From: an uncultured Treponema sp.
GTDB lineage: Bacteria > Spirochaetota > Spirochaetia > Treponematales > Treponemataceae
Reading direction: 5' to 3'
NCBI GenBank assembly: GCA_937890485.1
Contig: CALBXN010000010.1
Coordinates: forward strand, 1,178 to 65,177
DNA: 64,000 bases
In this document: positions 456-60,725 of the stretch, piece by piece
Layout of the letters: every line of letters starts with the position of its first letter
Position numbering within the stretch: the stretch's first letter is position 1
Translations under genes and position numbers: made by a program
The notes under the pieces: generated by a model
Told to the model about the DNA's origin: nothing
The model's input: only the letters and a program-made list of their open reading frames with translations
Database searches by the model: none

Positions 456-501
456 TTTATATTTGTAAAAGTAGTAAAAGTGAAATTCTAAGGAGAAAAA
501 T

Positions 502-710: not shown

Positions 711-911
711 ATGGCAAGAGCAAAGATATATTGTGAGATTATATGTAATAATTGTGGAGCATTATTAAAAGGTAGCGGATATTATAACAATTCATCCATC
801 ATATCAAGATTAAAAGAAAACGCAAAAGAATCTAATTGGATATGGAGTGAAGAATTTTGTGGTAATTTATGCCCAGATTGTCAAGAAGAAATGAAAAACA
901 AGTCTGTTTAA
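711..911 (+). CDS. small zinc-ribbon protein (CxxC...CxxC)
   Basis: CNNCG...CPDCQ cysteine pairs. GAGG SD upstream. The C-terminal end resembles that of ORF 36286-36593. Confidence 0.6.
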   Translation: MARAKIYCEIICNNCGALLKGSGYYNNSSIISRLKENAKESNWIWSEEFCGNLCPDCQEEMKNKSV

Positions 912-945
912 AAATGAAATTCTGAGGAGGTTTTATGAAAATAGA

Positions 946-1104: not shown

Positions 1105-1136
1105 CCATGAATTGTCCGTTTTATTAGGAGAAAGAC

Positions 1137-10126: not shown

Positions 10127-10312
10127 ATGAAATTAACATTAAAAGAAGTCATTGAAAAGAGACAACATAAATACGATAAGGATTCAAAATGTTCTTGTAA
10201 CGAATGGTATAAAGGACATATGTGTGGTTGGTATTCAGCTTATCAAGATTTATCAGAGATATTAGAACAAAATGGGTTTGATGTAAACCAGATTGTTATT
10301 GATAGACCTTGA
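10127..10312 (+). CDS. hypothetical protein (61 aa)
   Basis: Internal ATG of track ORF 10004-10312, preceded by AAGGTGG. The upstream extension overlaps the previous gene. Confidence 0.55.
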   Translation: MKLTLKEVIEKRQHKYDKDSKCSCNEWYKGHMCGWYSAYQDLSEILEQNGFDVNQIVIDRP

Positions 10313-10344
10313 TGAAACCGACATTTTAAGACCGTTTTGGAGGT
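10312..10344 (+). promoter_or_regulatory. conserved intergenic cassette ATGAAA-N6-TTTTAAGACCGTTTTGGAGGT
   Basis: The 23-nt core CATTTTAAGACCGTTTTGGAGGT (10322-10344) recurs exactly at 31754-31776. Confidence 0.5.
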
Positions 10345-11773: not shown

Positions 11774-12097
11774 ATGTTTGGCAAATATAAAGTGGCTCAT
11801 TTACTTGGAATTACAAGAGAACATGAAAAGCAATTCAGACATGTAGAAACCGAATTGACAAAGAAGGGATATATTTGCTTTGCACCTGTAATTTACAATC
11901 TTGAGGTATATAAGCAATATCCAGATTTGTTAGATGATATGTGTTATGAAAAATTGTTAGTTTGTGATATTTGTGTGGTTGTGACACCCGAACATATAGG
12001 TAAATCGACTTCAAATAGAATTAGGCAAGCAAAGGAATTAAATAAGCCAGTATATGTATGGGAAAATAATGAATTAAGAATTATGGAACAGCCATAA
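11774..12097 (+). CDS. DUF4406 / nucleoside 2-deoxyribosyltransferase-like fold protein (tentative)
   Basis: SD AAAGGAGG before ATG 11774. The pattern F..VE.EL.KKGY.CF.PV...CD.CVVV.P..IG.ST...I..A.ELNKPVY fits that family loosely. Confidence 0.35.
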   Translation: MFGKYKVAHLLGITREHEKQFRHVETELTKKGYICFAPVIYNLEVYKQYPDLLDDMCYEKLLVCDICVVVTPEHIGKSTSNRIRQAKELNKPVYVWENNELRIMEQP

Positions 12098-12154
12098 ATC
12101 AAAGATTTTATTGACAAAATAAGAGAATATAAAAGAGAAAAGGAGATTAAAACT

Positions 12155-14266: not shown

Positions 14267-14288
14267 GAAAGAAAAGGAGAATAAGATT

Positions 14289-14681: not shown

Positions 14682-14690
14682 AACAGTAGT

Positions 14691-14730: not shown

Positions 14731-14774
14731 CACCATGAAAAGTTAATTTTAAGTCCTTTTGAAAGGAGGAAAAT

Positions 14775-15476: not shown

Positions 15477-15587
15477 AAGTAGCCATTGAACGAAGGTTTC
15501 ATCGGGAAAAGTGAGGTGAATTTATAATGAATCCATTAGATGAATTAAAGAAAAGAATGGAAACGCTAGAAGTCAGCAAGAAAATAT

Positions 15588-16442: not shown

Positions 16443-16907
16443 ATGGGATTTATATATAGACTTACAGATTTAACTGATAAAGAGAAGAAATATGTTGGTA
16501 TTATTCATACTAAAAATAGAACTTTAAAAGAAAGAATTGAAGAACATTTAAAAAAGGATTCATGGTGTTGGTCATCCCCTTATATGGTCGAATATATTGA
16601 AGATGATTTTAGTAGAACTGATGCAGAATATATTGAGTCACATCTGATAAATTTATATCAAACAGATAAATACTATAATCGAAGTAAAGCAAAATGGGGC
16701 ATTTCAAGGTATATATCAGATTTAGAAGATAAATGGCAATATTATGATGTAATTAATGCACATCTTTTGGAGAAAGAATTAGAGATATTGAAAAACAGAG
16801 TAAAAGAATTAGATAAACAAAATTCTTTCTACTTAGAAATATTGAATTACATAAAGACACAAGATAAACAAATCAAAATGTTTAAACATATATGCATGTC
16901 AAATTAA
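16443..16907 (+). CDS. GIY-YIG-like nuclease (paralog 1 of 2), probable free-standing homing endonuclease
   Basis: MGFIYRL...KKYVGII..R.LKERIEEH...AEYIESHLI; paralogous to 42290-43033. SD GAGGTGG before ATG 16443. Confidence 0.5.
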   Translation: MGFIYRLTDLTDKEKKYVGIIHTKNRTLKERIEEHLKKDSWCWSSPYMVEYIEDDFSRTDAEYIESHLINLYQTDKYYNRSKAKWGISRYISDLEDKWQYYDVINAHLLEKELEILKNRVKELDKQNSFYLEILNYIKTQDKQIKMFKHICMSN

Positions 16908-17348
16908 ATTTGGTCGTTGAACAAAGATAAAGTTGCTAAGACAATAGAGACTCTACAACATGGAACGAGTGGGATACCAACACATTAAACTATGGCGAAA
17001 TCCATGAGAGGTTTGCAGTAGGTGAGAAGCCTTGCACGACCAAAAAGAGAATAATTAAATAAGCACTCTGAAAAGTTTGGCGACCTACAGAGTGCTTACA
17101 CACATAACACAACACGAAAATCGCAAAGGATAAACGTATTGCTTACATATATTATACCAATTCTTTTAGCATTATTCAATGCGATTTTCCAAACAACTAT
17201 ATATAGTGGTTGATACTCTAAATATATACAATATGTAGACTTAAAACCACCATAGAATACTGCTTTTATGGCAGAAATTATTACATATCAAAGATAGGAG
17301 GAAAAGAGGTTTGAACGTTCACTAAATTGCAATTTACTCCTATAAAGA

Positions 17349-18026: not shown

Positions 18027-18166
18027 AACGGCAATAGAAAAAGTGTTTTATCGAGATTTTTAACAACTAAATAGAGAAGTAATAAGTGAAAAATAAATCA
18101 GAAAGGATAAAAGTTAGGGTAGCTACTAAGGACATGTCACCTTTCTGGTGAAAAGTTATTAAGTAT

Positions 18167-18919: not shown

Positions 18920-18920
18920 T

Positions 18921-19661: not shown

Positions 19662-19728
19662 GTAAATAAAAACACAATATATAGATTAAAAATGCCGATA
19701 AATTCCGCATTTTAAGGAGAGTGAGAAA

Positions 19729-20109
19729 ATGATTGAAGAAATTAAGACATATAAAACATCAGATGGAGAATTATTTGATGATAAGAAAGAAGCAGAAAAG
19801 CACGAGTTAGAGTTGCAGAAAATCAAGATTTATCGTGTCCATTATCATCCAGAACTGAATGAAGGAAGAGGGTATTTAGATAATGGATATGTATTTATAC
19901 ACGCAAATAATTTTCATGACATGTTCTTGAAGGATTGGTTACATAAGAAATTTGGCAATCCTATTTCATTTGTAATGGGCGTGTACGGTTCAAACGCAAT
20001 CATGGACAGTTACACATGGTATGAAGTTACAGAATCAGATGTTGAGTCTAACAAGATTTTAACAAGAATTGAAGAAAACTTTGTAAATAAGATTTGGAAG
20101 GAGAAGTAA
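19729..20109 (+). CDS. hypothetical protein (126 aa)
   Basis: SD AAGGAGAG upstream. Confidence 0.6.
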   Translation: MIEEIKTYKTSDGELFDDKKEAEKHELELQKIKIYRVHYHPELNEGRGYLDNGYVFIHANNFHDMFLKDWLHKKFGNPISFVMGVYGSNAIMDSYTWYEVTESDVESNKILTRIEENFVNKIWKEK

Positions 20110-20289: not shown

Positions 20290-20332
20290 CCACAGTTAAA
20301 AATTCGATTTAAGGAGAGCGATAATAGAAAGT

Positions 20333-21269: not shown

Positions 21270-21533
21270 ATGAGTTGGGATAAAATTGAAGACCATTTGT
21301 TTGAAAAATATTGTGTAGAAGGAGAGGACACGAAATTATCCAATCTCATGAAAGAACATGATAAAGAAGTTAAAGATAGTACTATTAAGGAATTTGTAGA
21401 AAAACTTAAAGAAAGTCTTCTTCATCGTTTTAGACATCTAGTTACAACAGATACAGATGGTTTTGAGTGGCTTACAACTGATAGCGTTGAAACACATATT
21501 GAAGAAACTGTAAAAGATTTTAAAATCAATTGA
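21270..21533 (+). CDS. hypothetical protein (87 aa)
   Basis: SD GAAGGAG upstream. Confidence 0.6.
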   Translation: MSWDKIEDHLFEKYCVEGEDTKLSNLMKEHDKEVKDSTIKEFVEKLKESLLHRFRHLVTTDTDGFEWLTTDSVETHIEETVKDFKIN

Positions 21534-21574
21534 ACTTGCATTTTAAAGTAAAAATGCGGAAAGGAAGTAGGAAA

Positions 21575-23119: not shown

Positions 23120-23179
23120 TAAATAAATTCGAGATTTTAAGGAGAAAAATGGAGGTCAATGTGTCAGACCTATTTAATT

Positions 23180-28563: not shown

Positions 28564-29385
28564 ATGAAAAATAAACTGAGAGGAGTGAATTACATAAGAG
28601 GAATTAAAGGAAGTCCAGATATAAGCAAAATAGGTGAAATTAGAAACAATAGTAAAGGTACACCGATGAAAATTGTTGCATATAGGAACTCAGAAGATAT
28701 TGATGTGCAGTTTCAAGATAAGTTTTATTACATAAAAGAACATCAGACATATAGCAATTTTAAAGCAGGTGTTATTAAGAATCCTTATGACAGAACAGTA
28801 TTTGATGTTGGGTATTTAGGTGTTGGAAGACACAAAATTCAATATCCTGAAACGATGACAAATACAAAAGTGTATATGTCTTGGAAGAATATGCTTGATA
28901 GATGTTACTGTGAAAGACATAAAGAAAAGAATCCTTGCTATTTTGAAATATCAACAGTGTGTGATGAATGGCATAACTTCCAAAATTTCGCAGATTGGTA
29001 CGAAGAAAGAGAATATGAAACTGAAGGAAGATTACATTTAGATAAGGATATCAAATATCCTGGCAATACGGTATATAGCCCACAAACTTGTATATTAACT
29101 CCTCAAAAAATAAATATGATGTTTGTTAATAAGTCAAATAACAGAGGTCTTCCGAATGGAATTGTTAAGCAAGGCAAGGGATATTTGGCTAAATATAACC
29201 ATGAGCATTTGGGTGTATATCCAACTGTAGAAGAAGCATATTATCGTCAGACTCAGAAAAAGAAAGAGGCAATCATAGAATTAGCGGATGATTACAGAAA
29301 TAGAAATATCATTCCACAATATATCTATGACATTGTTGTAGCTTATGAGTTTGATATTAGAAATGATAGAAACTATGTTGCATAG
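28564..29385 (+). CDS. putative homing endonuclease with AP2-like domain (paralog 2 of 3)
   Basis: Same conserved blocks as 8517-9284. No SD at ATG 28564, so the start is uncertain. Confidence 0.55.
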   Translation: MKNKLRGVNYIRGIKGSPDISKIGEIRNNSKGTPMKIVAYRNSEDIDVQFQDKFYYIKEHQTYSNFKAGVIKNPYDRTVFDVGYLGVGRHKIQYPETMTNTKVYMSWKNMLDRCYCERHKEKNPCYFEISTVCDEWHNFQNFADWYEEREYETEGRLHLDKDIKYPGNTVYSPQTCILTPQKINMMFVNKSNNRGLPNGIVKQGKGYLAKYNHEHLGVYPTVEEAYYRQTQKKKEAIIELADDYRNRNIIPQYIYDIVVAYEFDIRNDRNYVA

Positions 29386-30680: not shown

Positions 30681-30733
30681 GCTCAAAATCTCCTGAAAAC
30701 ATCGGTTTCATTGCTATTTTTGAAAGGAGTAAT

Positions 30734-31444: not shown

Positions 31445-31747
31445 ATGAGTCATCCAATGTGTCCATATTGTAGATTTGAAGAATCTAATTTTTGCGACAA
31501 GGGTAGAGGTGGTGTATGTCAAATATTCCAACCTAAAATAAGAGAAGTCAAATTTGATATTTGTCCTATATGTGGAAGAGAAGTAAAAGTTCGTGGTGGA
31601 GTTGAAGATTGGAAACCAACTTTTTACGACCCTGATAGTGGTGGCGACCCATATTATATTCATTGTGAATGTGGGATTGAATTTAGTATTGGACATTGTG
31701 AAATAACAGATTTAGCAAAAGCGTGGAATAAAAGAGTAAGGCAATAG
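31445..31747 (+). CDS. Lar-like zinc-ribbon protein
   Basis: CPYC...CPICG...HCECG and the C-terminal LAKAWNKRV motif. Confidence 0.5.
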   Translation: MSHPMCPYCRFEESNFCDKGRGGVCQIFQPKIREVKFDICPICGREVKVRGGVEDWKPTFYDPDSGGDPYYIHCECGIEFSIGHCEITDLAKAWNKRVRQ

Positions 31748-31776
31748 AATTTTCATTTTAAGACCGTTTTGGAGGT
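31744..31776 (+). promoter_or_regulatory. conserved intergenic cassette ATAGAA-N6-TTTTAAGACCGTTTTGGAGGT
   Basis: The TAG of ATAGAA is the upstream stop codon. The 23-nt core is identical to 10322-10344. Confidence 0.5.
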
Positions 31777-31783
31777 GTAATTA

Positions 31784-31936
31784 GTGGGTTTACCAGAAAG
31801 TTTTTACAAAGAAATGGATAAGATGTTTGAAGAACTCGGTATAGAATTGGAAGATACAGATGATAAAGAAAAGATTATAAATGCAGATATGTTTATAGCG
31901 ACTTTTACACCATCAGAACCAATAGTAATTAAATAA
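31784..31936 (+). CDS. hypothetical small acidic protein (50 aa)
   Basis: Hand-translated GTG ORF 8 nt after GGAGGTG. Confidence 0.4.
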   Translation: MGLPESFYKEMDKMFEELGIELEDTDDKEKIINADMFIATFTPSEPIVIK

Positions 31937-31954
31937 AAAAGGTGGATAGAGAAG

Positions 31955-32233
31955 ATGTATGTAGAGAATATAGTTATAGGCAAACCGATTGTAGAACCAT
32001 CTACAATGCTTTCGCTTGATGAAGACGATTGGAATAGAACTGAAAAAGAGAAAACTTATTACACAGACGAAAGATTTTTACCAAGAATCTTGGTTGATAT
32101 TGGTATCTATCCATCTGTTAATGAGATAAGAAGAAATAAACCTGATTTGATGATTGAGTTAAATCAACTAGATTTTCTTGATAATCTGAAAGTTAGCAAG
32201 AAGAGAAGATTGTGGATATTGGTAGGTGAATAA
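31955..32233 (+). CDS. hypothetical protein (92 aa)
   Basis: SD AAGGTGG upstream. Confidence 0.6.
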   Translation: MYVENIVIGKPIVEPSTMLSLDEDDWNRTEKEKTYYTDERFLPRILVDIGIYPSVNEIRRNKPDLMIELNQLDFLDNLKVSKKRRLWILVGE

Positions 32234-32234
32234 T

Positions 32235-32819
32235 ATGAGTGATGATAATAGAGATTTTTACCTCAATACACTTAGAAGTATTGTAAAAACAGATGATGGT
32301 TACTGTTTGCAAAAGGTCTATGACGAAGACGAAAATGGGAAAATGATACAAACAGAAGAAGATAAAAACAATCCAAATAAGAATTATTTTTCTAAGAACT
32401 GTTATAGGTGCTTACATAGTAGTCATGAAGATTGTTTATTAAGAACCAAGTTAGAGAATCTTCCTGAAAATCATTTTATTCCTTGTCATTGGATTGCAAG
32501 TTGCGATGCTTATTCACCATTACTCCCATTAAACATTATCAATTCAAAAGAAGAGATGATTCAGTTTATTGAAAAGTCTGAGAATTTCTTTGGCTGTCCA
32601 GAAGACTATGAATCTTATTTTGGGTTTGAGAGAGAATGGGATGAAGAAACTGGCGAGATTTTGGAGTCAACAAGAGAATATCATAACAGAGGTGAAGAAT
32701 TTAAGGATATTCCTGATAAGTTTCCTTGCGTAATTTATTTTGGAATTGTGGACTATGACGGTGGAAGAATGTATGACGAAAAGTTGGATTGGATTTATAT
32801 AGGAGAATTATATGGTTAA
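32235..32819 (+). CDS. hypothetical protein (194 aa)
   Basis: ATG 32235 follows GGTAGGTGA. The track start at 32226 is GTG. Confidence 0.6.
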   Translation: MSDDNRDFYLNTLRSIVKTDDGYCLQKVYDEDENGKMIQTEEDKNNPNKNYFSKNCYRCLHSSHEDCLLRTKLENLPENHFIPCHWIASCDAYSPLLPLNIINSKEEMIQFIEKSENFFGCPEDYESYFGFEREWDEETGEILESTREYHNRGEEFKDIPDKFPCVIYFGIVDYDGGRMYDEKLDWIYIGELYG

Positions 32820-33000
32820 AATTTGTTGCGATTTATGTGAAAGAAATATGACAAAAGATGAAAATAGAACAAGAGTTACGTTAGAAGATGAAAATGGATA
32901 TGACTATGAATTTGGTCATGTTTTTAGAAAACCAAGAAAGTTAAGAATTGATATATGTGATGAATGTTTGCAGTTGCTGAGAAGTAAAGCAAAGTCTTGA
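32812..33000 (+). CDS. small zinc-ribbon protein
   Basis: CDLCER...CDEC motif. SD AGGAG. Confidence 0.6.
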   Translation: MVKICCDLCERNMTKDENRTRVTLEDENGYDYEFGHVFRKPRKLRIDICDECLQLLRSKAKS

Positions 33001-33032
33001 AACAACTCTTTTAAAGACAAATTGGAGGTGAT
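32996..33032 (+). promoter_or_regulatory. conserved intergenic cassette CTTGAA-N7-TTTTAAAGACAAATTGGAGGTGAT
   Basis: Near-identical to 40006-40042 (TTTTAAGGACAAAATTGGAGGTGAT). The TGA of TTGAA is the upstream stop. Confidence 0.5.
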
Positions 33033-33036
33033 TTTA

Positions 33037-33465
33037 GTGAGTATATGGGAATGGTATCATCATTATAATAAAGAGTTAAAAAGTATTAATAAGACAAAAA
33101 GAGAATATGGATATGCGTTTTTAGGTACATTGAAGATTGGTTTTTGGTTTGGTGTATTTACCGATGTAATGATGTTATTTTCAGTAATGACATTGCCTTT
33201 GCTCAATCTTATTTTTAATGATGATATGAAACCAACGGAAGATATTATTGAAATGTTTATAGGAACGCCAATATGTGCCTTATGTATGTTTATGATAATT
33301 ACTTTTGTTTCAATGATAATTCGTCCAAAAACATTAAAAATGTATGGTAGTGAATCAAAAAATGAATTTCTTAATATCATGGTTGGTGGATTTGACGGAT
33401 GGTTTCAAGTATGTGTTTTTACAGGAGTTAGTAAAAAAGACAGAAATAAGTTTGAAAAACGGTAA
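33037..33465 (+). CDS. integral membrane protein (about 3 TM helices)
   Basis: GTG 33037 follows GGAGGTGAT. Hydrophobic segments FWFGVFTDVMMLFSVMTLPLL and ICALCMFMIITFVSMII. Confidence 0.6.
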   Translation: MSIWEWYHHYNKELKSINKTKREYGYAFLGTLKIGFWFGVFTDVMMLFSVMTLPLLNLIFNDDMKPTEDIIEMFIGTPICALCMFMIITFVSMIIRPKTLKMYGSESKNEFLNIMVGGFDGWFQVCVFTGVSKKDRNKFEKR

Positions 33466-33492
33466 TAGAATTTTGCTTTTAAGAGGAAATAT

Positions 33493-33786
33493 ATGGAAAG
33501 ATTAACAAGACTGTGTAATAACACAGAAAATGGAAAATTTTCTAAATATACTGCATGTGAATATACAGGTGTATATCCAGAGGTTGCACTTGGTAAGGTT
33601 ATTGAAAAACTTGCATATTATGAAAATTTGGAAGAAGAAGGAAGATTAATAATACTGAGTGTTAGCGACATATATCCATGTAAACATTGTGATTGTGGAT
33701 ATGGAAGTATTTCATTAGAAGGTTGTAAGTCATGCCATGATGACTGCGAAAGATTAAAACAATATTATGAGAAATATGGATATTGA
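33493..33786 (+). CDS. hypothetical Cys-rich protein (97 aa)
   Basis: SD GAGGA. The KLAYYENLEEEGRL motif is common in Firmicutes phage proteins of unknown function. Confidence 0.6.
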   Translation: MERLTRLCNNTENGKFSKYTACEYTGVYPEVALGKVIEKLAYYENLEEEGRLIILSVSDIYPCKHCDCGYGSISLEGCKSCHDDCERLKQYYEKYGY

Positions 33787-33815
33787 ATAATGAAAATTAT
33801 ATTGGAGGATTTGAG

Positions 33816-34328
33816 ATGAATGTAAATTGGTCTAAAGAAGAAATGAAACAATATTTTATGTTTACACATCAAACTAAAGTATTGCTTAGAGATAAATACA
33901 TTCAGTTAGAAATGGAAGTAGATGTTTTTAATGGTCATGTAAGTTACAACGTTACTGATGGTGCGGATATTGAATATGCTTCGTTTAATTTGATTGATGA
34001 TGCAATTGATAAGTTTTATGAAATGAAACAAAATAGCAAATCAAAAGAATATAAAGCACAAACCTGTATTTTAAAAGAACATTTAAATTGTCTATATCTG
34101 ACAAAAGAAAATAGAGATAAAGTTTTGAAAAGTTTAAAGCCTCGTCTTGGAGAATATGATGATGTAAAAATTATCGAAGACAATAATAAACAGGTAGTAG
34201 TACAGCATGAAGGATGGCGTAAAGAATATTATTTTTATAATCATTGGTATGTAAGAAATTATGATTGTGTGTGGGAATGTTACACAGATGAAGAATTTAA
34301 AGAAAATTTCCAGTTGGTTGAGGAGTAA
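33816..34328 (+). CDS. hypothetical protein (170 aa)
   Basis: ATG 33816 follows TGGAGGA. The track start at 33783 is an extension. Confidence 0.6.
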   Translation: MNVNWSKEEMKQYFMFTHQTKVLLRDKYIQLEMEVDVFNGHVSYNVTDGADIEYASFNLIDDAIDKFYEMKQNSKSKEYKAQTCILKEHLNCLYLTKENRDKVLKSLKPRLGEYDDVKIIEDNNKQVVVQHEGWRKEYYFYNHWYVRNYDCVWECYTDEEFKENFQLVEE

Positions 34329-34370
34329 AAAAACTCAATTGAACTAACATTTAAAAGGAGAATAAATTAT

Positions 34371-34589
34371 ATGTGGGTAACAGAATATACAGAATTTAAA
34401 TGTCCGTATTGTAATTATGAATATAAATATATTGTAGGTCGTGGTGAAAATTATGAATATAAAGAAAAAGTTTATCATCATGAGGTATGTCCAAATTGCG
34501 AAGAAGAATTTTTAGTTAATAACAATGAATCTATTAAAATGCCAAAGGACAAGAATGAGGTAAAATTTCATTCAAGATGGAGGTCTTAA
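34371..34589 (+). CDS. small zinc-ribbon protein
   Basis: CPYC...CPNC motif. SD AAAGGAG. Confidence 0.6.
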   Translation: MWVTEYTEFKCPYCNYEYKYIVGRGENYEYKEKVYHHEVCPNCEEEFLVNNNESIKMPKDKNEVKFHSRWRS

Positions 34590-34643
34590 ATCCAGAGTTT
34601 TACGAAGAAAATAAATAAAAGCGTTTTATGAGGTGTGTAGATT

Positions 34644-35051
34644 ATGTTGGATAGTAATATGGTATTAGGTTGGGAAGAAGTAACTCATGACTTATATGAA
34701 GAAAACGGATATGTTTTTGGTATAGAGCTAGATTTATTCAATGGATATCAAGTTTATTATGCTAAATCAACAGATAAAAATGGGAAGACATATTATTGCG
34801 ATTTAAGTGATGATATTTATAAAGCTATTAAGGAGTTTAATAAGATAGTAGCTATGAAAGACAAGAGACAAGAGTATATTGAATATTTTACACGTATGCA
34901 AGAAGAAGATAATAAATTTCTTCTTGGTGGAATGGCTTGGGATGGCATTTCTTGGTGGATATATAATGCTACAGAAAAAGACAAATTGTTTACAAAGAAT
35001 GAATTAGCAGATATGTTCCCTGATTTATTAGGGTATTTAAAAAACGAATAA
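34644..35051 (+). CDS. hypothetical protein (135 aa)
   Basis: SD GAGGTG upstream. Confidence 0.6.
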   Translation: MLDSNMVLGWEEVTHDLYEENGYVFGIELDLFNGYQVYYAKSTDKNGKTYYCDLSDDIYKAIKEFNKIVAMKDKRQEYIEYFTRMQEEDNKFLLGGMAWDGISWWIYNATEKDKLFTKNELADMFPDLLGYLKNE

Positions 35052-35076
35052 AAATAAAGTTCACGAGGTGAAATAT

Positions 35077-35253
35077 ATGTTTTTGCATGTAAATTTTATA
35101 AAAATGCTTGGATTTAAATCTATTGATGATTTTGTAGAGGTTTTTGTCAAAGAGCATGTTAATTATTGCATTATGTATAAGCCAGACGGAGTATATGTTG
35201 ATTATGATTTTGATAGCAATAATGGAATTGATAATAAAGGATATTTTAACTAG
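35077..35253 (+). CDS. hypothetical protein (58 aa)
   Basis: ATG 35077 follows GAGGTGA. Confidence 0.5.
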   Translation: MFLHVNFIKMLGFKSIDDFVEVFVKEHVNYCIMYKPDGVYVDYDFDSNNGIDNKGYFN

Positions 35254-35262
35254 GAGGTTAAT

Positions 35263-35457
35263 ATGGATTTTTATGAAGAATTACAGAAAAACCAAGAGTC
35301 TTTTAAACAAGAATATGAAGAAGATAAAATAATTCGTGCTTCAATAAAAGCTACAGTTACCAAACAAGATTTAATAGATACTTTTAATAAAAAATATCTT
35401 GTTGGGGTTTATCACCTTGGTATGAAAAATATGCTGGATTATCTAAATGGTAATTGA
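35263..35457 (+). CDS. hypothetical protein (64 aa)
   Basis: SD AGGAGG upstream. Confidence 0.6.
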   Translation: MDFYEELQKNQESFKQEYEEDKIIRASIKATVTKQDLIDTFNKKYLVGVYHLGMKNMLDYLNGN

Positions 35458-35482
35458 ATCTTGGTTTTAAGGTGGTGATGTA

Positions 35483-35863
35483 GTGGCAAATTATATGAAA
35501 AATGTTGCAGAAATGCTTGGTGTAGAAATCAATGAAGAGTTTATCGTAACACATGACGAGGGAAGGTCAACAGTAAAATTAACAACAAGCGGATTAAAAT
35601 TTGTGAATCATCTTGGAACATTAAAAGAGGATGCGCCAGCAATATGTTTAAAAGAAATATTAAATGGAAATTTTCAGATTGAGCATATAAATAAAACATC
35701 TTCAGATTCTAATGTCCCAAATGTGCTTTTAGTAGAGGGCTATGATGAGGAATTATTCATAAACGGCAAATCTGTATGTGTACATAAAAGGTTGTATCCG
35801 TCAGACGTGTTAAGTGCTTTAGCAGATAATAGAATCATTACTTACAAAAGAGAAGAGAGATGA
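35483..35863 (+). CDS. hypothetical protein (126 aa)
   Basis: GTG start after AAGGTGGTGAT. Confidence 0.6.
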   Translation: MANYMKNVAEMLGVEINEEFIVTHDEGRSTVKLTTSGLKFVNHLGTLKEDAPAICLKEILNGNFQIEHINKTSSDSNVPNVLLVEGYDEELFINGKSVCVHKRLYPSDVLSALADNRIITYKREER

Positions 35864-35901
35864 TACCAAATAAAAAAATGTTTTATATGAGGAGATTTAT
35901 T

Positions 35902-36249
35902 ATGAAACTTTGGATAGATGATGTAAGACCTATACCTAATGGGTATGTGTGGAAAGCAACAGTTAATGATGCAAGAAAGTTTATTGAATATTGTGAAGAC
36001 GTAGTCGCTGCACATACAACAAATACTGAAATTGATAGTTTAATAACAAAAACGTATCGGATTGAACTGATTGATATTGACCATGATGCAGGTGATTATG
36101 CGTCGGATGGTGGTGATTACATCAAACTTCTTGATTGGTTAGAAGAAACTGGTCGTAACTATCCAATTCGTATCCATAGTATGAATCCTGTTGGTATTGC
36201 AAATATGAGAGCCATAATTCAGAGAAATAATTGGGTAGAAGTGCAATAG
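35902..36249 (+). CDS. receiver-like domain protein (cyclic-phosphate-processing REC, cREC-like)
   Basis: MKLWIDDVRP.P.GY....V..A..FI....ELIDIDHDAGDY..DGGDYIKLLDWLEE....YPIRIHSMNPVG..NM matches my recollection of that family. Confidence 0.5.
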   Translation: MKLWIDDVRPIPNGYVWKATVNDARKFIEYCEDVVAAHTTNTEIDSLITKTYRIELIDIDHDAGDYASDGGDYIKLLDWLEETGRNYPIRIHSMNPVGIANMRAIIQRNNWVEVQ

Positions 36250-36285
36250 AAGGTCATTCTAAGGTGATTTGTGGAGGTGAAAATA

Positions 36286-36593
36286 TGGATACAGATAGAA
36301 GTGCTTGGTGGGCATGGGCGTTAAAGAATAGTGTATGCGTAATCTGTTGGGTTGTTCTTGCTATCATGTTTAACAAATGGTGGATTGCATTATTTTCTGT
36401 ATTGTTTATGAGTGATTTAAAAAGTCATCCTGCTATTCAACAGTATTATAGAGTTTGTGATAAGTGTGGTAAACACAGTCCAATGGCAGATAATTACAAT
36501 GACGCATTAAAATTTGCAAAAGAAAACGGTTGGACAAACATAAAAGTTGGTGATAAATGGGAAGATTATTGCCCAGATTGTCAAGAAAATTAG
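36286..36593 (+). CDS. membrane protein with C-terminal zinc ribbon
   Basis: ATG 36286 follows GGAGGTGA. Two TM helices, then CDKCGK...CPDCQEN. Confidence 0.6.
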
Positions 36594-36636
36594 CGTTAGA
36601 ACCTGTGTTTTAAGGTGGAAAGGAGAAAATGAATAT

Positions 36637-36816
36637 ATGAGTATGTTATATCCTATTTTTGAACATGGTGCAACATTTACATATCAAGGAAAGACGTATT
36701 GTACTATAGGAATTGATGCGCCAAGAGGTGAAATTGAGTGTCAGATACTTCCTTTTGATGGTAATTATTATTGGTTTAAAGTAAGTGGAAATGGCAATAA
36801 GGTACGAATGATTTAA
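36637..36816 (+). CDS. hypothetical protein (59 aa)
   Basis: ATG 36637 follows AAAGGAG. The track start at 36547 overlaps the previous gene. Confidence 0.5.
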   Translation: MSMLYPIFEHGATFTYQGKTYCTIGIDAPRGEIECQILPFDGNYYWFKVSGNGNKVRMI

Positions 36817-36820
36817 GGAG

Positions 36821-37573
36821 GTGATTAAAATTAAGAAAATATCATTAAATGTAGCAGAAGAAATCAAAAATATTCTTCCAGAAACCTTAAATAAGGACTT
36901 GCAAGATGACGAAATTATTTGTCCAGTATGTCATGGACTTGGCGTAAAAATGTGGAATAACCCATATGGAATTAAAGGAGATACATCAGAGGAAGCAAAA
37001 AGGTCAATGTTTCCTTATAAACATCAGTCCCTTCTTCCTTGTCCTAACTGTTATAACGGTGTAGTTAATTTGTGTGAATATTGTGGTAAACAGCTACCAA
37101 AAGGCAGATTGAAGTGTGATTGCGAACAACAAAAAGAAAAAGATGAAGAAGAAAAGAGAATTAAATATCAGGAAACCATTGATAAGGCTACTGAAATTGA
37201 ATTAAAAGATACTTCCTATTACATATATGATGAACAATCTGATAAGTATTTTACTGATGAAGATGAGTTTGTAGACCATTGGTGGGAGTTGTATCAAGAA
37301 GGCGACCACGATTGTAATAACTTTGATGAGTATTTTGAGAAATACGTTCCAAAGGTGTTATGGAACTGTGAAGAAGTCAAAATTTCAATAGATGCAGACC
37401 GTATTATCGAAAATGCTTGTGAAGAATTACATGAAGATGCAAGAGATAATATCTCTGACGAGAAGGAACTGCAAGAATTTCTTGATAAGTGGTGTGCTAA
37501 ACAGAGTGGTACAACAACTTATTATCCTTGTTATAGAGAATATGTAAGAGTGCAGAAGGAGTGGTTTGATTGA
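36821..37573 (+). CDS. zinc-finger protein with CxxCxGxG-like motifs (250 aa)
   Basis: CPVCHGLG, CPNCYNG, CEYCGK motifs. The start is ambiguous: GTG 36821 lies inside the SD, and an in-frame ATT at 36830 has ideal spacing. Confidence 0.6.
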   Translation: MIKIKKISLNVAEEIKNILPETLNKDLQDDEIICPVCHGLGVKMWNNPYGIKGDTSEEAKRSMFPYKHQSLLPCPNCYNGVVNLCEYCGKQLPKGRLKCDCEQQKEKDEEEKRIKYQETIDKATEIELKDTSYYIYDEQSDKYFTDEDEFVDHWWELYQEGDHDCNNFDEYFEKYVPKVLWNCEEVKISIDADRIIENACEELHEDARDNISDEKELQEFLDKWCAKQSGTTTYYPCYREYVRVQKEWFD

Positions 37574-37821
37574 AAAAAATAAAGTTTGTATTAAATGGTT
37601 GTGACATATCATTCACGGCAGAAGCTCCTGAAGATATTACACTTAAACAGCTATTAGAACAGTGTGACAAGATTAAACCAGATTGGTGTGCTTGTGGAAT
37701 TTGTTCTTATGAGAAAGCAGGATGTGACGATTCTGATGAACCTGAAATAATTATCGGGTATGACAGTATCAGAAAAACTAGTGAAGATGTTAGTTGTGCG
37801 ATTATAGAAAAGGAGAAGTAA
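37570..37821 (+). CDS. hypothetical protein (83 aa)
   Basis: TTG start 8 nt after AAGGAG. Overlaps the previous stop. Confidence 0.55.
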   Translation: MKKIKFVLNGCDISFTAEAPEDITLKQLLEQCDKIKPDWCACGICSYEKAGCDDSDEPEIIIGYDSIRKTSEDVSCAIIEKEK

Positions 37822-38181
37822 ATGAGTGTAAATAGAAATTATTATGTCATAGCTGGCTACGACTTGACTGGCATGAAAACAGATAAGTTTGACGATTGGA
37901 AATGGACTGATGAGGGAGAAAATTATACTTGCTATCAGGGAAAAGGTAAGATTCAAGTCTTCTACGACCCTATGAGTGGTGAACATTTGTACTTTGGTTA
38001 CATATTAGCAGATGGTGATATGTATGGATATGAAACAAGTAAGTTCAAAGTAGAAGATGTAAATGGTATTTATGGAGATGTAAAGGCAGAATTGGTTAAG
38101 TTAATCGAAATGGGAATCATTACAAAAGACCCTCGTTTTATTCCTGAATATCAGATTATTGCGTTTGAAGAATGTACATAA
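37822..38181 (+). CDS. hypothetical protein (119 aa)
   Basis: SD AAAGGAG upstream. Confidence 0.6.
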   Translation: MSVNRNYYVIAGYDLTGMKTDKFDDWKWTDEGENYTCYQGKGKIQVFYDPMSGEHLYFGYILADGDMYGYETSKFKVEDVNGIYGDVKAELVKLIEMGIITKDPRFIPEYQIIAFEECT

Positions 38182-38196
38182 GGAGAATAAATAAGT

Positions 38197-38430
38197 ATGA
38201 ATGAGAAATATTTAATCAATATTCCCTTCGATGACATGATTGCTGAAATGCTTGGATGTATTAGAAATGGTACTTGTTATCATACATATTATTGGTATCA
38301 CGAAGATAAAGGCTATCTTGAAATCACAGAATGTGATTTGTTGAGAGGAAGAATTATTGTAGAAGATGGTGATTTCTCAGAATTTGATTGGGAAATGGAA
38401 GAAAGTCACATTTACAGAGAAGCAATTTAG
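38197..38430 (+). CDS. hypothetical protein (77 aa)
   Basis: SD AAGGAG upstream. Confidence 0.6.
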   Translation: MNEKYLINIPFDDMIAEMLGCIRNGTCYHTYYWYHEDKGYLEITECDLLRGRIIVEDGDFSEFDWEMEESHIYREAI

Positions 38431-38475
38431 CGATGAATCGGGGATTTCCAAGAGAAAATTTTAAGAAGGAGAATA

Positions 38476-39222
38476 ATGGTAGGAGAAATAAACGAAAATA
38501 AAAAAGGTACAAAAATGAAGATAATTGCTCATAGAAGCAATGGCGATATAGATGTAGAGTTTTTAGACACTCATCATTATGTGTTTGAACATGCACAATA
38601 TCAGAATTTTAAAACTGGTGGTATAAAGAACCCTTATGACAAAACCGTTTATGGGAAAGGTTACATTGGAGAAGGTAAATATGTAGGATGGGTCAATGGG
38701 AATCACACTGAAGAATATGAAATTTGGAAAGGAATACTTAAAAGGTGTTATAGCGAAAGCCAAAAGGACGTATTTAATAGCTATTTTAATATATCTGAAG
38801 TTTGTGATGAATGGTTGAACTTTCAAAACTTCGCTGAGTGGTATCACACTCATAAATACGAATGTGATGGAAGATTACATATAGATAAAGACATCAAATA
38901 TCCTGGTAATAAACTCTATAGTCCATATCATTGCTTATTAACTCCACAACGAATCAATATGCTATTCATGAACAAACCAAACAACAGAGGTCTACCTAAC
39001 GGTATTAAGAAATATAAAAGTGGATATCTAGCGAAATATAACCAAGAAGAATTAGGGATATATCCGACAGTGGAGGAAGCATATGCAGTTTATGCTGACT
39101 CTAAGAAGAAAGCAATCGTTGCAGTAGCCAATGAATATAAAGATAAGATTCCAGAAGAGTTATATAATGCATTATTGAATTATGAAATACGCATTGAAAA
39201 TGATAAAAACTATGTTGCGTAA
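38476..39222 (+). CDS. putative homing endonuclease with AP2-like domain (paralog 3 of 3)
   Basis: Same conserved blocks as 8517-9284 and 28564-29385. SD GAAGGAG. Confidence 0.55.
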   Translation: MVGEINENKKGTKMKIIAHRSNGDIDVEFLDTHHYVFEHAQYQNFKTGGIKNPYDKTVYGKGYIGEGKYVGWVNGNHTEEYEIWKGILKRCYSESQKDVFNSYFNISEVCDEWLNFQNFAEWYHTHKYECDGRLHIDKDIKYPGNKLYSPYHCLLTPQRINMLFMNKPNNRGLPNGIKKYKSGYLAKYNQEELGIYPTVEEAYAVYADSKKKAIVAVANEYKDKIPEELYNALLNYEIRIENDKNYVA

Positions 39223-39232
39223 GAGGTGAGAG

Positions 39233-39523
39233 ATGGAGATTAGAAAGTTTAAGCCATACGGACAATGGGTGTGGGGTGAGTATGATTTCTATGTCAATAA
39301 TGAAATAGTTGCAAAATTTAGAACACAATTAATTGGTAGTGATTATGTATATGTTTATTTCTTGCCACAAATATATAGAGATGAATATTGTATACGCATT
39401 GATAAGCGATACATAACTCATGATGAAGCTCTTGATAAGGCTATAAAGATTGTACAAAAGAAGTTATATGCTTTGGCATCAAACACTTTGTCTGATATCA
39501 AACAAGTTGAAATGGAGAAGTAA
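39233..39523 (+). CDS. hypothetical protein (96 aa)
   Basis: SD GAGGTGAGAG upstream. Confidence 0.6.
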   Translation: MEIRKFKPYGQWVWGEYDFYVNNEIVAKFRTQLIGSDYVYVYFLPQIYRDEYCIRIDKRYITHDEALDKAIKIVQKKLYALASNTLSDIKQVEMEK

Positions 39524-39526
39524 GTA

Positions 39527-40009
39527 ATGAATGATAGATTTGTAATAAATTATGAAATGGATTTAAAAAGATGTAGGTCGGATTATTTAACAGAACATGA
39601 ACTTGGTAGCGAAATTGTTCGTTTAATGAGACATGGAGCGTGTGATGTGCATGTAGTTATTTTAGATTCTGAGAAACTGAAAGGAGAAGAAAATATGGTA
39701 AGACCAATCAGTGATGTTCATTTAATTGTGAATGGACAAAGTATTAAAGTAGGAAAAGTTGTTTGTGAATGTGATGAAGGAAGATGGTTTAATAATCCAA
39801 ATGAACGTATTACAAATACTGAATGGGAAAGACGTAAGAAGAACTTTGAAATTGGCGACCAAAAAATAGGTGACTTGGTTTATCACTGTGTAGGTGAGTT
39901 TAAAAACAATATTGCCTTGAAACCAATAGAGAAGAAATGGATAGATGAACTTGAAAGTATGGGTTATACAGTTCAAAACAAGCTGGTTTATGAGGTAAAA
40001 GAGCCATAG
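39527..40009 (+). CDS. hypothetical protein (160 aa)
   Basis: SD TGGAGAAG upstream. Confidence 0.6.
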   Translation: MNDRFVINYEMDLKRCRSDYLTEHELGSEIVRLMRHGACDVHVVILDSEKLKGEENMVRPISDVHLIVNGQSIKVGKVVCECDEGRWFNNPNERITNTEWERRKKNFEIGDQKIGDLVYHCVGEFKNNIALKPIEKKWIDELESMGYTVQNKLVYEVKEP

Positions 40010-40042
40010 AACAAACGTTTTAAGGACAAAATTGGAGGTGAT
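40006..40042 (+). promoter_or_regulatory. conserved intergenic cassette ATAGAA-N6-TTTTAAGGACAAAATTGGAGGTGAT
   Basis: The TAG is the upstream stop codon. Near-identical to 32996-33032. Confidence 0.5.
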
Positions 40043-40912: not shown

Positions 40913-41032
40913 AAGTATTCCGAAATTCCTTTGCAGGATATTGGATAGAGGTATTTCTGATGCCTTGTATACTCTGAAAAGACTATACGGAAGGAGAAAA
41001 TTTCTCCACAGAACTGGGGTTTTATCGAGAAA

Positions 41033-43033: not shown

Positions 43034-43095
43034 TACATAGCTAAAACAGCAATAGAATTTCGGATTTAAGGTGGTTAAGAAAGGAGAAGATATAA

Positions 43096-43638: not shown

Positions 43639-43700
43639 TTGAGAATTAGAACATTGATTTTATTGACAAAAATAACAATAGAAAAGGAGAAAAGATTATT

Positions 43701-44243
43701 ATGAACAAATGGAAGTTACCGTTAATTATTGGAGCAGGTGTTATTGCAGTTATTTTACTTTGTGTATTTGGAGTGCAGAGTTCTCAGAACAAGGCAATCG
43801 CCTTAGAGGAGCAGGTTAATACTGCACAGTCAGATATTAAGGTTCAGGAAAAGAGAAGAGTAGATTTAGTATATAACCTTGCAGATTGTGTAAAACAGTA
43901 TGACAAGCATGAAGCTGATACATTAACTGCCATTGCAGAAGGTCGTGGTTCTACAGGAGATATTGAGAATGTCACAACAGCAATTACGGCAGTATCAGAA
44001 GCATATCCAGAATTGAAGTCAAATGAGAACTACAAACAGCTTATGAATGAATTGGCTATGACAGAGAACTTAATTGCAGAATATCGTAGCAATTACAATA
44101 AGCAAATTAAAGAATACAACAGATATGTTCGTAAGTTTCCTGCAAGAATGTTCTTAGACTGGCTTGGATATGAGGTTATGGATTATCAGTATCTTAGTTA
44201 TGATGCGCCTGAGACAGCACCTCAGAATTTGTTTGGAGAATAA
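43701..44243 (+). CDS. lemA: LemA family membrane protein
   Basis: N-terminal TM helix, then ALEEQVNTAQSDIKVQEKRRVDLVYNL...AYPELKSNENYKQLMNEL...N.YNKQIKEYNRYVRKFPARMF. Confidence 0.8.
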   Translation: MNKWKLPLIIGAGVIAVILLCVFGVQSSQNKAIALEEQVNTAQSDIKVQEKRRVDLVYNLADCVKQYDKHEADTLTAIAEGRGSTGDIENVTTAITAVSEAYPELKSNENYKQLMNELAMTENLIAEYRSNYNKQIKEYNRYVRKFPARMFLDWLGYEVMDYQYLSYDAPETAPQNLFGE

Positions 44244-45457: not shown

Positions 45458-45507
45458 GTCTTAAATTTCTTATTTCATTGACAAATTATTAAGGAGAAAA
45501 AGAGAAA

Positions 45508-59659: not shown

Positions 59660-59724
59660 ATAAAAATGAGTCAAAAACAGCCATGAAATAGGACTTTCAT
59701 CGGGATTTTTGGAAAGGAGATTAT

Positions 59725-60274: not shown

Positions 60275-60496
60275 ATGAAAGAAGGATGGTTGTGTCCAAG
60301 ATGTGGAAGAATAAATGCACCATTTACAATGTATTGTGATTGCAAAGAACATCATGACGATAATGCAAAAGTTGATTCTATTATAGATATAAGCGAATGT
60401 AAAAGAGGAAATCACGATTGGAAATTAGACCTATATTCATCAGCAATAAAATATAGATGTAGTCGATGCGGAATAGTGAAATATGATACCTTATAG
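60275..60496 (+). CDS. small zinc-ribbon protein
   Basis: CPRCG...CDC...CSRCG motifs. SD GAAGGAG. Confidence 0.6.
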   Translation: MKEGWLCPRCGRINAPFTMYCDCKEHHDDNAKVDSIIDISECKRGNHDWKLDLYSSAIKYRCSRCGIVKYDTL

Positions 60497-60532
60497 AACA
60501 AGTCTTTTATTGACATAGATTTGGAGGTAAAA

Positions 60533-60688: not shown

Positions 60689-60725
60689 AACACCATGAAA
60701 TCACGGTTTCAAGGAGAAACAATAA

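Follow-up and report, generated by a model that had tools for sequence, protein, structure and literature searches.

The window analysed here, a 64-kb stretch of phage DNA on contig CALBXN010000010.1 (32% G+C, strong G>C skew, all genes on the + strand), carries about 28 copies of a ~22-bp inverted repeat, or dyad, all of them intergenic and none in coding DNA. The copies share the consensus C(C/A)(A/T)T(A/G)(A/G)AA - six unconserved bases - TT(T/C)(T/C)A(A/T)(G/C)G, frequently have a run of A upstream of the left arm, and carry an outer C/G at +/-11 from the centre. Our favoured, still tentative reading is that this element is a lineage-specific, multi-copy operator serving a phage regulator, and that the repeats recombine only as a by-product; the mechanism, as distinct from the sequence statistics, is one that we infer throughout.

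All 18 instances listed by an earlier note on this DNA are present in the sequence, as is the exact 23-nt identity that it reported between 10322-10344 and 31754-31776 (CATTTTAAGACCGTTTTGGAGGT); in the note's second pair (33009-33032 and 40018-40042), the leader at the 40004 copy resembles that at 33009-33032. The note's description of a ~19-nt intergenic cassette holds as to reality and location and falls short as to extent: the unit is the ~22-bp dyad with its outer C/G, and at least ten of its copies lay beyond the list (1105, 8249, 12092, 18032, 30692, 41006, 43644 and 60491, with 906 and 45459 in flipped orientation). Enrichment over shuffled sequence, which the note had set as a test, is borne out, the strict pattern WTDGAA-N6-TTTTAAG occurring 5 times against 0.13 expected and reaching 5 in none of 100 shuffles. 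The heptamer TTTTAAG alone has no overall enrichment in the window (28 against 28.1 expected); on the + strand, 12 of its 17 copies fall within the 11.5% of the window that is intergenic and 5 elsewhere (P = 6e-9). A de novo expectation-maximization motif finder was swamped by Shine-Dalgarno (SD) sequences and was replaced by k-mer enrichment together with a seeded matrix. The resulting position-weight matrix, built from 22 instances, has 20 + strand matches of at least 14 bits, against 0.47 in shuffles (shuffle maximum 3); its matches of at least 12 bits are intergenic every time and coding never, and leave-one-out scores are at least 8.7 bits for 20 of the 22 instances. The bare dyad TRRAA-N6-TTYYA, with expectations taken from dinucleotide-preserving shuffles, occurs 21 times in the window against 6.2 expected, a count that none of 100 shuffles reaches.

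The spacing is as specific as the arms. Intergenic dyads in the window number 24 at N6 against 2-6 at N2-5 and N8-11, and the 21 counted at N7 are mostly the same sites, seen with the one-base shift that the T run permits; in L211 (L-numbers denote the related loci or contigs compared with the window) there are 29 at N6 against 0-3 at other spacings. Intergenic gaps have a median length of 42.5 nt with a copy and 14 nt without one, so the genome pays for the site in added DNA.

Scanning the reverse strand with the matrix recovers the same sites as the + strand, which identifies the repeat as a dyad. Across 59 unique copies from the window and its relatives, the left half and the reverse-complemented right half have nearly equal composition at positions 8, 7, 5, 4, 2 and 1 (for instance C at position 8 in 42 left and 44 right halves, T at position 5 in 56 and 57, G at position 4 in 13 and 14), while position 6 is A-rich in the left half and T-rich in the right. 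Inverted copies are among the highest-scoring ones in the relatives: two score 22.9-23.9 bits, and the inversion is conserved in L261/L263, L262 and L094. Two dyads also occur in tandem, 32 bp apart centre to centre (ATAGAA cccacg TTCCAAGG ... TTAGAA aaagtg TTTTAAGG; L094 236-297, L261 6870-6930, L263 4140-4190), a layout resembling that of adjacent operators.

The element is closely fitted to the signals on either side of it. Its inner left arm consists of a stop codon plus AA (TAAAA, TAGAA or TGAAA), with TGGAA rare. The note was right that the upstream gene often ends on a TAG or TGA within the first hexamer: among the window dyads, the stop is exactly at the arm in 10 and offset by one base (TTGAA) in 2, and 5 more are preceded by an in-frame stop at a distance of 3-9 nt. 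In L211 a real upstream stop lies in the arm at 15 of 34 intergenic dyads, with an in-frame stop 3-9 nt before it at 8 more. Upstream reading frames never extend into the spacer or the right arm, and the SD follows 0-15 nt after the right arm. Because the right half, on the opposite strand, has the same TRRAA pattern with no stop-codon role, we read the overlap with stop codon and SD as compaction, the site being squeezed between two genes and sharing bases with the signals of both.

Bare dyads are likewise in excess in L211, one of the distant relatives (32 found against 3.1 expected), L198 (16 against 1.2), L263 (8 against 1.2) and L187 (9 against 2.9), and the same scan found no enrichment in L179, L009 or L260. 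L211 has the consensus aTAAAA-N6-TTTTAtAAGGAG, with a dyad 5' of about half of its genes (34 for 61). A pattern scan of viral contigs, together with scans using conserved leaders, located further motif-bearing contigs: the window's own version of the element, 5' of the ribosome-binding site (RBS), occurs in L059/L143, L142/L089, L262, L264 and L066/L094/L261/L263 (contig ~132 kb, also binned as Eubacterium sp.). Besides the window's own lineage, dyad-positive ones are represented by ULYF01056991.1/USBB01000003.1, IMGVR_UViG_3300025073_000027, 3300000921_000001 and 3300042922_000906, and the consensus differs between lineages (TAGAA-rich or TAAAA-only). The 23-mer cassette was not found in viral contigs. 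In relatives with 91-93% DnaE identity the element was not found around DnaE, and similarity to the window stops at the RecD2 stop codon; Bacillus phage Kioshi has a homolog of the window's 703-aa protein (described below), and the dyad system was not found in it. As judged from these sequences, the element is old within the phage group but patchy, and such a lineage-specific spread fits a site that travels with its own specific binding protein.

On the operator reading, the site would be double-stranded DNA composed of two inverted 8-bp half-sites, 5'-C(C/A)(A/T)T(A/G)(A/G)AA-3', with exactly 6 bp between them, and its reader would be a two-fold symmetric dimer of a lineage-specific, probably phage-encoded protein; reverse-complement symmetry without compensation between the arms fits such a dimer on double-stranded DNA, the two half-sites being read separately. 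The ~28 copies would have been fitted into the only free DNA, the 25-60 nt from a stop codon to the next SD, the left arm usually doubling as the stop codon and the right arm running into the RBS. Binding within co-directional gene arrays would then control downstream expression, perhaps as a roadblock or silencer in the manner of the stoperators and SPBRE considered below. As a side effect of the repetition, the repeated 22-35 bp blocks would act as crossover points, and gene cassettes could therefore be swapped precisely, each with its own stop codon and RBS.

Several observations weigh against this reading. The symmetry is imperfect, G at position 3 (TAGAA) belonging mainly to the left half (27 against 6), and orientation is biased, with 47 forward and 12 reversed copies among the 59 unique ones (~20% inverted). 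The density in L211 exceeds that of any known operator system. In a co-occurrence scan of the 703-aa gene's 81 neighbourhoods, dyad-positive loci had no protein family to themselves, only two universal families being shared, and no YopR/MrpR homolog was found, a phmmer search with YopR against all window proteins giving no match at E <= 1. The sole clear candidate for a reader, by sequence, is a 65-aa helix-turn-helix (HTH) protein of Cro/C1 type (4120-4317) that resembles YopS and YopO of SPbeta, and a temperate lifestyle for the phage is no more than possible. Two further points, which would suit a promoter and an RNA element respectively, count on the same side: the 14733 dyad is the sole element between a terminator-like hairpin (14690-14725, -24.7 kcal/mol) and the gene at 14775, and sense-strand mismatches are RNA-stem-like, with G.T in 34 cases against A.C in 11, of which the GC skew (G ~1.9x C) explains only a part. 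A bolder proposal, which we regard as a long shot, is that the dyad and a dimeric protein form a genome-wide, gene-by-gene switch peculiar to a group of uncultured gut Firmicutes phages, one protein gating transcription or translation initiation at every junction and the same sites serving as precise joints for the exchange of promoterless cassettes. The site is present at the stop/start junction of up to half of the genes (34 for 61 in L211), and the architecture, were the proposal right, would be integron-like without an integron integrase.

Symmetry, independent arms, flipped copies and marginal RNA stability together argue against both a sigma-type promoter and a selected hairpin. The first was the earlier note's main proposal, a promoter read by the sigma-like factor encoded at 4495-5121, and by sequence that 208-aa product is a credible sigma (PHROG sigma families, E = 2e-10; weak region-4 match). 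The left block CCATAGAA would here be a -10-like element for this factor or a different phage transcription factor. Transcripts would begin close to the G that precedes TTTTAAG, and their short leaders would open with UUUUAAGG and carry the SD. Consistent with such a promoter, the element always lies 6-40 nt 5' of an SD and start codon, right arm and leader are duplicated as one unit, a sigma-like gene is at hand in the window, and a start at the T run, with CCATAGAA as the -10-like block, is geometrically possible at all copies. We nevertheless consider it distinctly improbable, since the half-sites are two-fold symmetric, ~20% of copies are inverted (the relatives' best-scoring copies among them), and no column is conserved 17 bp upstream, hence no -35. 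A 208-aa sigma with region 4 implies a -35/-10 pair ~17 bp apart, and the conserved blocks stand 6 bp apart, a spacing that the note had itself recognized as incompatible with a normal pair; with the T run taken as the -10, the start lands on or after the SD at 33463, 19696, 34336, 35451 and 60693. Moreover, sigma-A consensus pairs are not in excess (75 against 104 expected), a copy precedes about half of the genes in L211, and the sole relative with a sigma homolog (L260, 46% identity) lacks significant dyad enrichment (3 against 1.7 expected). An RNA-level element, suggested by the note as RNA processing or translational, would instead be a small hairpin formed by the two arms of the + strand transcript, its stem of 5-8 bp (A-U/G.U) closed by a hexaloop, with the upstream stop in its 5' arm and its 3' end adjoining the SD. 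Its role would be to link termination with re-initiation, to flag a site of processing or to serve as target of an RNA-binding protein. In 23 of 34 copies in L211 and ~17 in the window, the left arm is indeed the real stop or an in-frame tandem one, the right arm, which abuts the SD, is entered by no upstream frame, the U-rich 3' arm can pair with all three stop codons, seven window copies fold at -4 to -6.6 kcal/mol, and orthologous copies show G-C, A-T and G.T at one pair. Covariation does not support the idea, predicted stability gives it no clear support, and we judge it unlikely. The arms pair in 73.4% of cells, and shuffling the 3' letters between copies gives 74.5 +/- 1.2%, with 422 of 500 such shuffles doing at least as well; covariation scores 0.175, against 0.183 in shuffles. 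Numbers of G-C and A.C pairs are those obtained by multiplying the single-arm frequencies, position 6 is paired in 23 of 59 sites (at or below chance), and in L211 and L198 A.C is as common as G.U, with G-C no commoner than independence predicts. Predicted stability is marginal: mean minimum free energy is -2.45 against -1.40 kcal/mol for shuffled sequence (mean z = -0.77, Wilcoxon P = 0.018), with ~7 of 24 copies, about a third, adopting the stem at <= -4 kcal/mol and many copies at 0. Inverted copies cannot form the stem in sense RNA, a loop length fixed at 6 is unusual for hairpins, a scan of the window at Rfam gathering thresholds yields two tRNAs only, and genome compaction can explain the stop-codon overlap.

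The note's further suggestion of a recombination boundary stands as an observation: in the comparison with relatives that it had asked for, run on a small sample, junctions lie at or within the spacer. The 93% identity to L059 stops at 21543, just past the spacer of the 21527 copy; a 98% identical block shared with motif-bearing contigs starts at 18038, inside the 18032 copy; and the 35-nt block of motif plus leader at 19698-19732 is 92-94% conserved in L094 and L262, where both flanking genes differ. Two pairs of window copies are alike in right arm and leader and not in the left arm, the identity between 10322-10344 and 31754-31776 beginning in the spacer, and the dyad-dense 31.7-36.6 kb region is made of small genes with no assigned function. 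It is quite unlikely, in our view, that the 8-6-8 inverted repeat is a crossover site with cassette shuffling as its main purpose, be it the core of a site-specific (tyrosine-type) recombinase or a homologous hot spot like the promoter-early stem-loops (PeSLs) of T4-like phages, moving cassettes of right arm, SD, open reading frame and stop/left arm. The 8-6-8 layout does resemble the geometry of dif or lox-type core sites, and this counts in favour. So do the PeSL crossovers, whose mapped positions are the loop and the interval from the -10 to the ATG (PMC2839356). On the other side, no recombinase, integrase or transposase was found among the ~50 window proteins scanned (~60 small proteins and the rest of the genome lay outside that scan), nor were homologs of SPbeta YopP and YopR found in the window, and a recombinase core site would be expected to have longer, less degenerate arms. 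Any conserved repeat gathers homologous-recombination junctions, which do not thereby show its purpose, and the bare dyad is kept across lineages whose 703-aa proteins are only 57-64% identical, pointing to a sequence-specific reader. That there is no element at all, merely A-rich sequence after stops and a U-rich tract before AAGGAG RBSs in very short AT-rich gaps, draws on the facts that TTTTAAGGAGG is merely an extended RBS in many relatives and that TAAAA and TTTTA are common words at 28-33% G+C. The spacing and the phyletic data bring this account, to which we give almost no chance, close to refuted: the spacer is exactly 6 nt in L211 and in the window, and the dyad is absent from the equally AT-rich L179 and L009. 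In addition, the nearest stop codon is 50-350 nt away from the copies at 14733, 17250, 41006 and 59681, both sides conserve the outer C/G at +/-11, and dinucleotide-preserving shuffles never match the observed counts.

Other candidates were tried and set aside. The sigma-like factor as reader of the motif has a counterpart in one relative only (L260), which is not dyad-enriched, and has no PDB relative. By inspection, geometries with an ECF-type -35 GAAC and a downstream -10, T4-late-like or sigma-54-like, either lack a conserved second block or place the start beyond the RBS. G.U on the sense strand, taken as proof of an RNA stem, is weakened by A.C in 11 of 59 sites and by equal numbers of the two in L211 and L198. 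As intrinsic terminators the copies are poor, their stems being weak (A-U/G.U) and a T run following within 10 nt in only ~6 of 23; three real terminator-like hairpins lie elsewhere. A cleavage site for the MazF encoded at 2015-2359 was considered, and no evidence for one was seen. To our knowledge, the Rex, CodY, CRP/FNR and LexA boxes of host regulators do not match the dyad, a separate SOS box at 2682-2695 excepted.

Multi-copy repressor sites in short intergenic gaps are established for the stoperators (PMC9283540, PMC6550527) and for SPBRE/MrpR of SPbeta (PMC10516654), and the operator reading has to be set beside these and other repeat families. Closest in kind are the SAS/ESAS of cluster K mycobacteriophages, which as of 2025 have no function assigned (PMC3203893, PMC12699233). 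Like the dyad, they occur in many copies immediately 5' of start codons, mostly in one orientation with rare inversions, and sometimes have the upstream stop inside the repeat; ESAS is also an imperfect inverted repeat whose consensus varies by sub-lineage and whose departures from it do not support an mRNA hairpin (PMC3203893, PMC12699233). SAS, however, is a 13-bp asymmetric GC-rich block (GGGATAGGAGCCC) that contains the RBS and has no sequence likeness to the dyad, the arms of ESAS are 17 bp with a variable 4-13 bp spacer as against 8 bp and a fixed 6 bp, and both belong to siphoviruses of ~60 kb with an actinobacterial host. The stoperators of cluster A phages (L5, Bxb1, TipsytheTRex) number 20-35, scattered genome-wide in short gaps between genes and frequently in contact with a stop or start codon (PMC9283540, PMC6550527); they have a lineage-specific consensus that co-evolves with the repressor, and act inside transcription units, where the bound immunity repressor halts elongation (PMC9283540, PMC6550527). 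The dyad is stoperator-like in being lineage-specific and present in many short-gap copies (~28 in 64 kb). Stoperators differ in being 13-14 bp, asymmetric, monomer-bound and strictly oriented, whereas the dyad has two like half-sites and 12 of 59 copies inverted. In Bacillus phage SPbeta, MrpR (YopR) has as its operator SPBRE, an intergenic repeat present ~10 times (PMC10516654). Derived from the SPbeta genome as CAAATACAAAWAATATGTATATA (15 bp, with the inner dyad ATACA-N7-TGTAT), it too contains a short dyad and abuts the SD at yopV and yopM; its sequence has no likeness to ours. Its copies lie in longer intergenic regions, where early operons have their sigma-A promoters (PMC10516654), whereas the dyad has a copy number ~3x higher and occupies gaps too small for a promoter.

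Two further families show partial likenesses. Like the element described here, the 17-bp palindromes of cluster O phages, TGTTCGG-N3-CCGAACA, are dyad-symmetric and present in many copies genome-wide (>30), with no assigned function and an orientation that carries no meaning; a third lie inside genes, they are not tied to starts and their arms are invariant (PMC4351075), whereas the copies described here are all intergenic, tied to the stop/start junction and degenerate. PeSLs are repeated cassettes between small genes without functional annotation in hyperplastic regions, where crossovers between copies shuffle cassettes, with junctions in the loop or next to the ATG (PMC2839356, PMC4122927), a shuffling paralleled by the mosaic junctions at the dyads; they are ~60-70 bp and combine a stable G/C-rich terminator hairpin with a consensus sigma-70 promoter, unlike the dyad, which has neither a sigma-A promoter nor a stable hairpin. 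The dyad thus fails at least one defining feature of each compared system and has no sequence in common with any: it is outside the named families and within the multi-copy intergenic phage repeats.

Repeats of this general kind recur in large phage genomes, and a mechanism has been demonstrated only for stoperators and SPBRE; SAS/ESAS and the cluster O palindromes have been without explanation for >10 years. The dyad adds a third, independent example, in unrelated uncultured phages of ~150 kb from gut hosts of Lachnospiraceae or Eubacterium type, and its rules are unusually clean: a fixed 6-bp spacer, the stop in one arm, the RBS beside the other, and presence that differs between close relatives. 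Given that phyletic patchiness, a comparison of complete genomes should lead directly to the binding protein, and simple reporter and pull-down assays are feasible with an element this short. A multi-copy operator would define immunity or regulatory groups among these phages, and one that also guided cassette exchange would explain how accessory arrays stay expressible while being shuffled. In annotating these genomes, the repeat is a helpful guide to real gene boundaries and start codons.

Copies of the dyad in the window. Sequences are given as on the + strand (left arm, spacer, right arm); bit scores are position-weight-matrix scores, and copies marked weak (472..493 and the last four rows) score 9-10 bits or lie below threshold.
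Position	Strand	Sequence	Score (bits)	Remarks
472..493	-	TAGTAAAA gtgaaa TTCTAAGG		weak, inverted; simple-dyad match, intergenic
906..927	-	GTTTAAAA atgaaa TTCTGAGG	15.0, - strand only	inverted; intergenic; upstream stop codon in left arm
1105..1126	+	CCATGAAT tgtccg TTTTATTA	14.7	11 nt before start codon
8249..8270	+	TCTTAGAA cacgag TTCTATAA	11.1	weaker dyad; perfect TAGAA/TTCTA; arm TAG = upstream stop
10310..10331	+	TGATGAAA ccgaca TTTTAAGA	13.9 forward, 18.4 reverse	tandem in-frame TGA TGA; right arm and leader identical to copy at 31754-31776
12092..12113	+	CCATAAAT caaaga TTTTATTG	19.5	arm TAA = upstream stop
14733..14754	+	CCATGAAA agttaa TTTTAAGT	15.5	directly after strongest terminator-like hairpin, 14690-14725
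15483..15504	+	CCATTGAA cgaagg TTTCATCG	23.9	
17250..17271	+	CCATAGAA tactgc TTTTATGG	29.0	best copy; 5' of Mom-like gene; 8/8 arm positions complementary; RNA minimum free energy -6.6 kcal/mol
18032..18053	+	CAATAGAA aaagtg TTTTATCG	27.4	orthologs in L059, L094, L262, L264, arms changed
19696..19717	+	CGATAAAT tccgca TTTTAAGG	18.0	
21527..21548	+	CAATTGAA cttgca TTTTAAAG	16.0	
23121..23142	+	AAATAAAT tcgaga TTTTAAGG	9.9	weaker copy; in the earlier note's list
30692..30713	+	CCTGAAAA catcgg TTTCATTG	18.4 forward, 18.0 reverse	near-symmetric; orthologs in L261 and L059 score best in inverted orientation
31742..31763	+	CAATAGAA ttttca TTTTAAGA	20.2	arm TAG = upstream stop
32995..33016	+	TCTTGAAA caactc TTTTAAAG	9.7 forward, 12.0 reverse	listed earlier as an N7 case; arm TGA = upstream stop
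33463..33484	+	TAATAGAA ttttgc TTTTAAGA	21.7	tandem in-frame TAA TAG; SD begins within right arm
34336..34357	+	CAATTGAA ctaaca TTTAAAAG	18.0	
35451..35472	+	TAATTGAA tcttgg TTTTAAGG	20.9	arm TGA = upstream stop
36244..36265	+	CAATAGAA ggtcat TCTAAGGT	10.4	perfect TAGAA/TTCTA, 5-nt spacer; arm TAG = upstream stop
36594..36615	+	CGTTAGAA cctgtg TTTTAAGG	21.7	second in-frame TAG 6 nt past stop codon
40004..40025	+	CCATAGAA caaacg TTTTAAGG	27.4	arm TAG = upstream stop
41006..41027	+	CCACAGAA ctgggg TTTTATCG	22.0	outside the earlier note's list
43050..43071	+	CAATAGAA tttcgg ATTTAAGG	23.3	
43644..43665	+	AATTAGAA cattga TTTTATTG	13.9	
45459..45480	-	TCTTAAAT ttctta TTTCATTG	12.5, - strand only	inverted
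59681..59702	+	CCATGAAA taggac TTTCATCG	26.0 forward, 21.3 reverse	A5/T5 flanks; orthologs in L058 and L142 vary at one arm position (G-C, A-T, G.T)
60491..60512	+	TTATAGAA caagtc TTTTATTG	14.2	arm TAG = upstream stop
60693..60714	+	CCATGAAA tcacgg TTTCAAGG	22.7 forward, 18.2 reverse	
7865-7886				weak; simple-dyad match, intergenic
14247-14268				weak; simple-dyad match, intergenic
20293-20314				weak; simple-dyad match, intergenic
34584-34605				weak; simple-dyad match, intergenic

A second palindrome accompanies some of these copies. The sequence CTATATATAG, with flanking (A)CCAC/GTGG, is found at 17197-17206, 59618-59627 and 59650-59659, and with one mismatch at 19675-19684, recurring ~20-45 nt 5' of dyad copies; the copies within 59618-59660 make a 14-bp inverted repeat, and a ACCACTATATATAGAC block also lies 5' of the orthologous dyads in L058 and L142. 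Possibly this palindrome is another regulatory element, or else it is the units' true promoter.

The window has a replication module (DnaB, primase, exonuclease, a DnaE-type PolIII alpha subunit and RecD2) and further encodes a ligase, two DNA methyltransferases, a Mom-like protein, a MazF toxin, two tRNAs, a P-type ATPase, three TerD-like proteins, a PspA-like protein and the sigma-like protein. A megablast of 31-41 kb against GenBank phages gave no matches, no close match to the window as a whole was found among GenBank phages, an exact-protein look-up of two window proteins found neither on record, and a search for relatives of the gene at 36821-37573 found none. The nearest cultured relatives of DnaE are in SPbeta-like Bacillus phages (39% identity), and uncultured relatives, IMG/VR contigs of ~150 kb and a contig binned with a Lachnospiraceae genome, have a DnaE 91-93% identical. 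A 703-aa protein with no function assigned (window 12155-14266; L265 20001-22037; PHROG 1735; no Pfam or PDB match) served as second anchor, its relatives in many large phage contigs being 50-74% identical. The genome is a mosaic: one contig may be 91% identical in DnaE yet 63% in the 703-aa protein. Homologs of the latter occur in 556 very diverse GenBank phage records (Bastille-like Bacillus, Vi1-like enterobacterial and Caulobacter phages), a few of which label it 'DNA-directed RNA polymerase' with no visible support; as a candidate YonO-type RNA polymerase it was rejected, having no similarity to SPbeta YonO and no PDB match.

The genes for the MazF/PemK-type endoribonuclease toxin (2015-2359; Pfam E = 2e-35), the HTH protein (4120-4317) and the sigma-like protein (4495-5121) form one regulatory-looking region with long intergenic gaps, and L260 has the same layout with the HTH gene divergent, on the opposite strand. 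Close by, at 2682-2695, 3' of gene 2374-2676 and 5' of the two tRNA genes, is a perfect Bacillus-type LexA (SOS) box (CGAACAAACGTTCG), which also scores as a small hairpin on the - strand. The box suggests SOS-responsive control, and therefore possibly a temperate lifestyle.

Among the remaining genes, three paralogs of ~250 aa (8517-9284, 28564-29385 and 38476-39222) share 64-80% nucleotide identity over several blocks and are spread across 30 kb; a Pfam scan that covered the second and third, the first lying outside it, gave no match, and they may be a free-standing homing-type or other selfish gene family. Cargo unusual for a phage occupies 23239-28382, with a P-type cation ATPase (867 aa), three tandem TerD-like genes and a PspA/IM30-like gene, and a LemA-family gene lies at 43701-44243; together they look like an envelope or ion-stress module. 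A DNA-modification cluster at 16443-19661 encodes a protein with a GIY-YIG nuclease domain, a Mom-family protein, a Dam-like D12 methyltransferase and an N6/N4 methyltransferase, and with its dyads it is the part common to the motif-bearing contigs L059, L143, L261, L262, L263 and L264. Inside this cluster, 440 nt without a reading frame (16908-17348), partly conserved at 69-82% in L059 and L066 (especially 17042-17193), hold a 10-bp stem AAGCACTCTG...CAGAGTGCTT with no Rfam match and may be a non-coding RNA. Amid the dyad-dense array of genes lacking functional annotation, 35902-36249 encodes a small cREC_REC protein (cyclic-phosphate processing receiver domain, E = 2e-16), which may be related to counter-defence. 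Strong terminator-like hairpins, of -12 to -25 kcal/mol and followed by T runs, occur in the 64 kb only at 1413-1436, ~2762-2804 and 14690-14725, and most of the window is therefore probably transcribed as very long transcripts.

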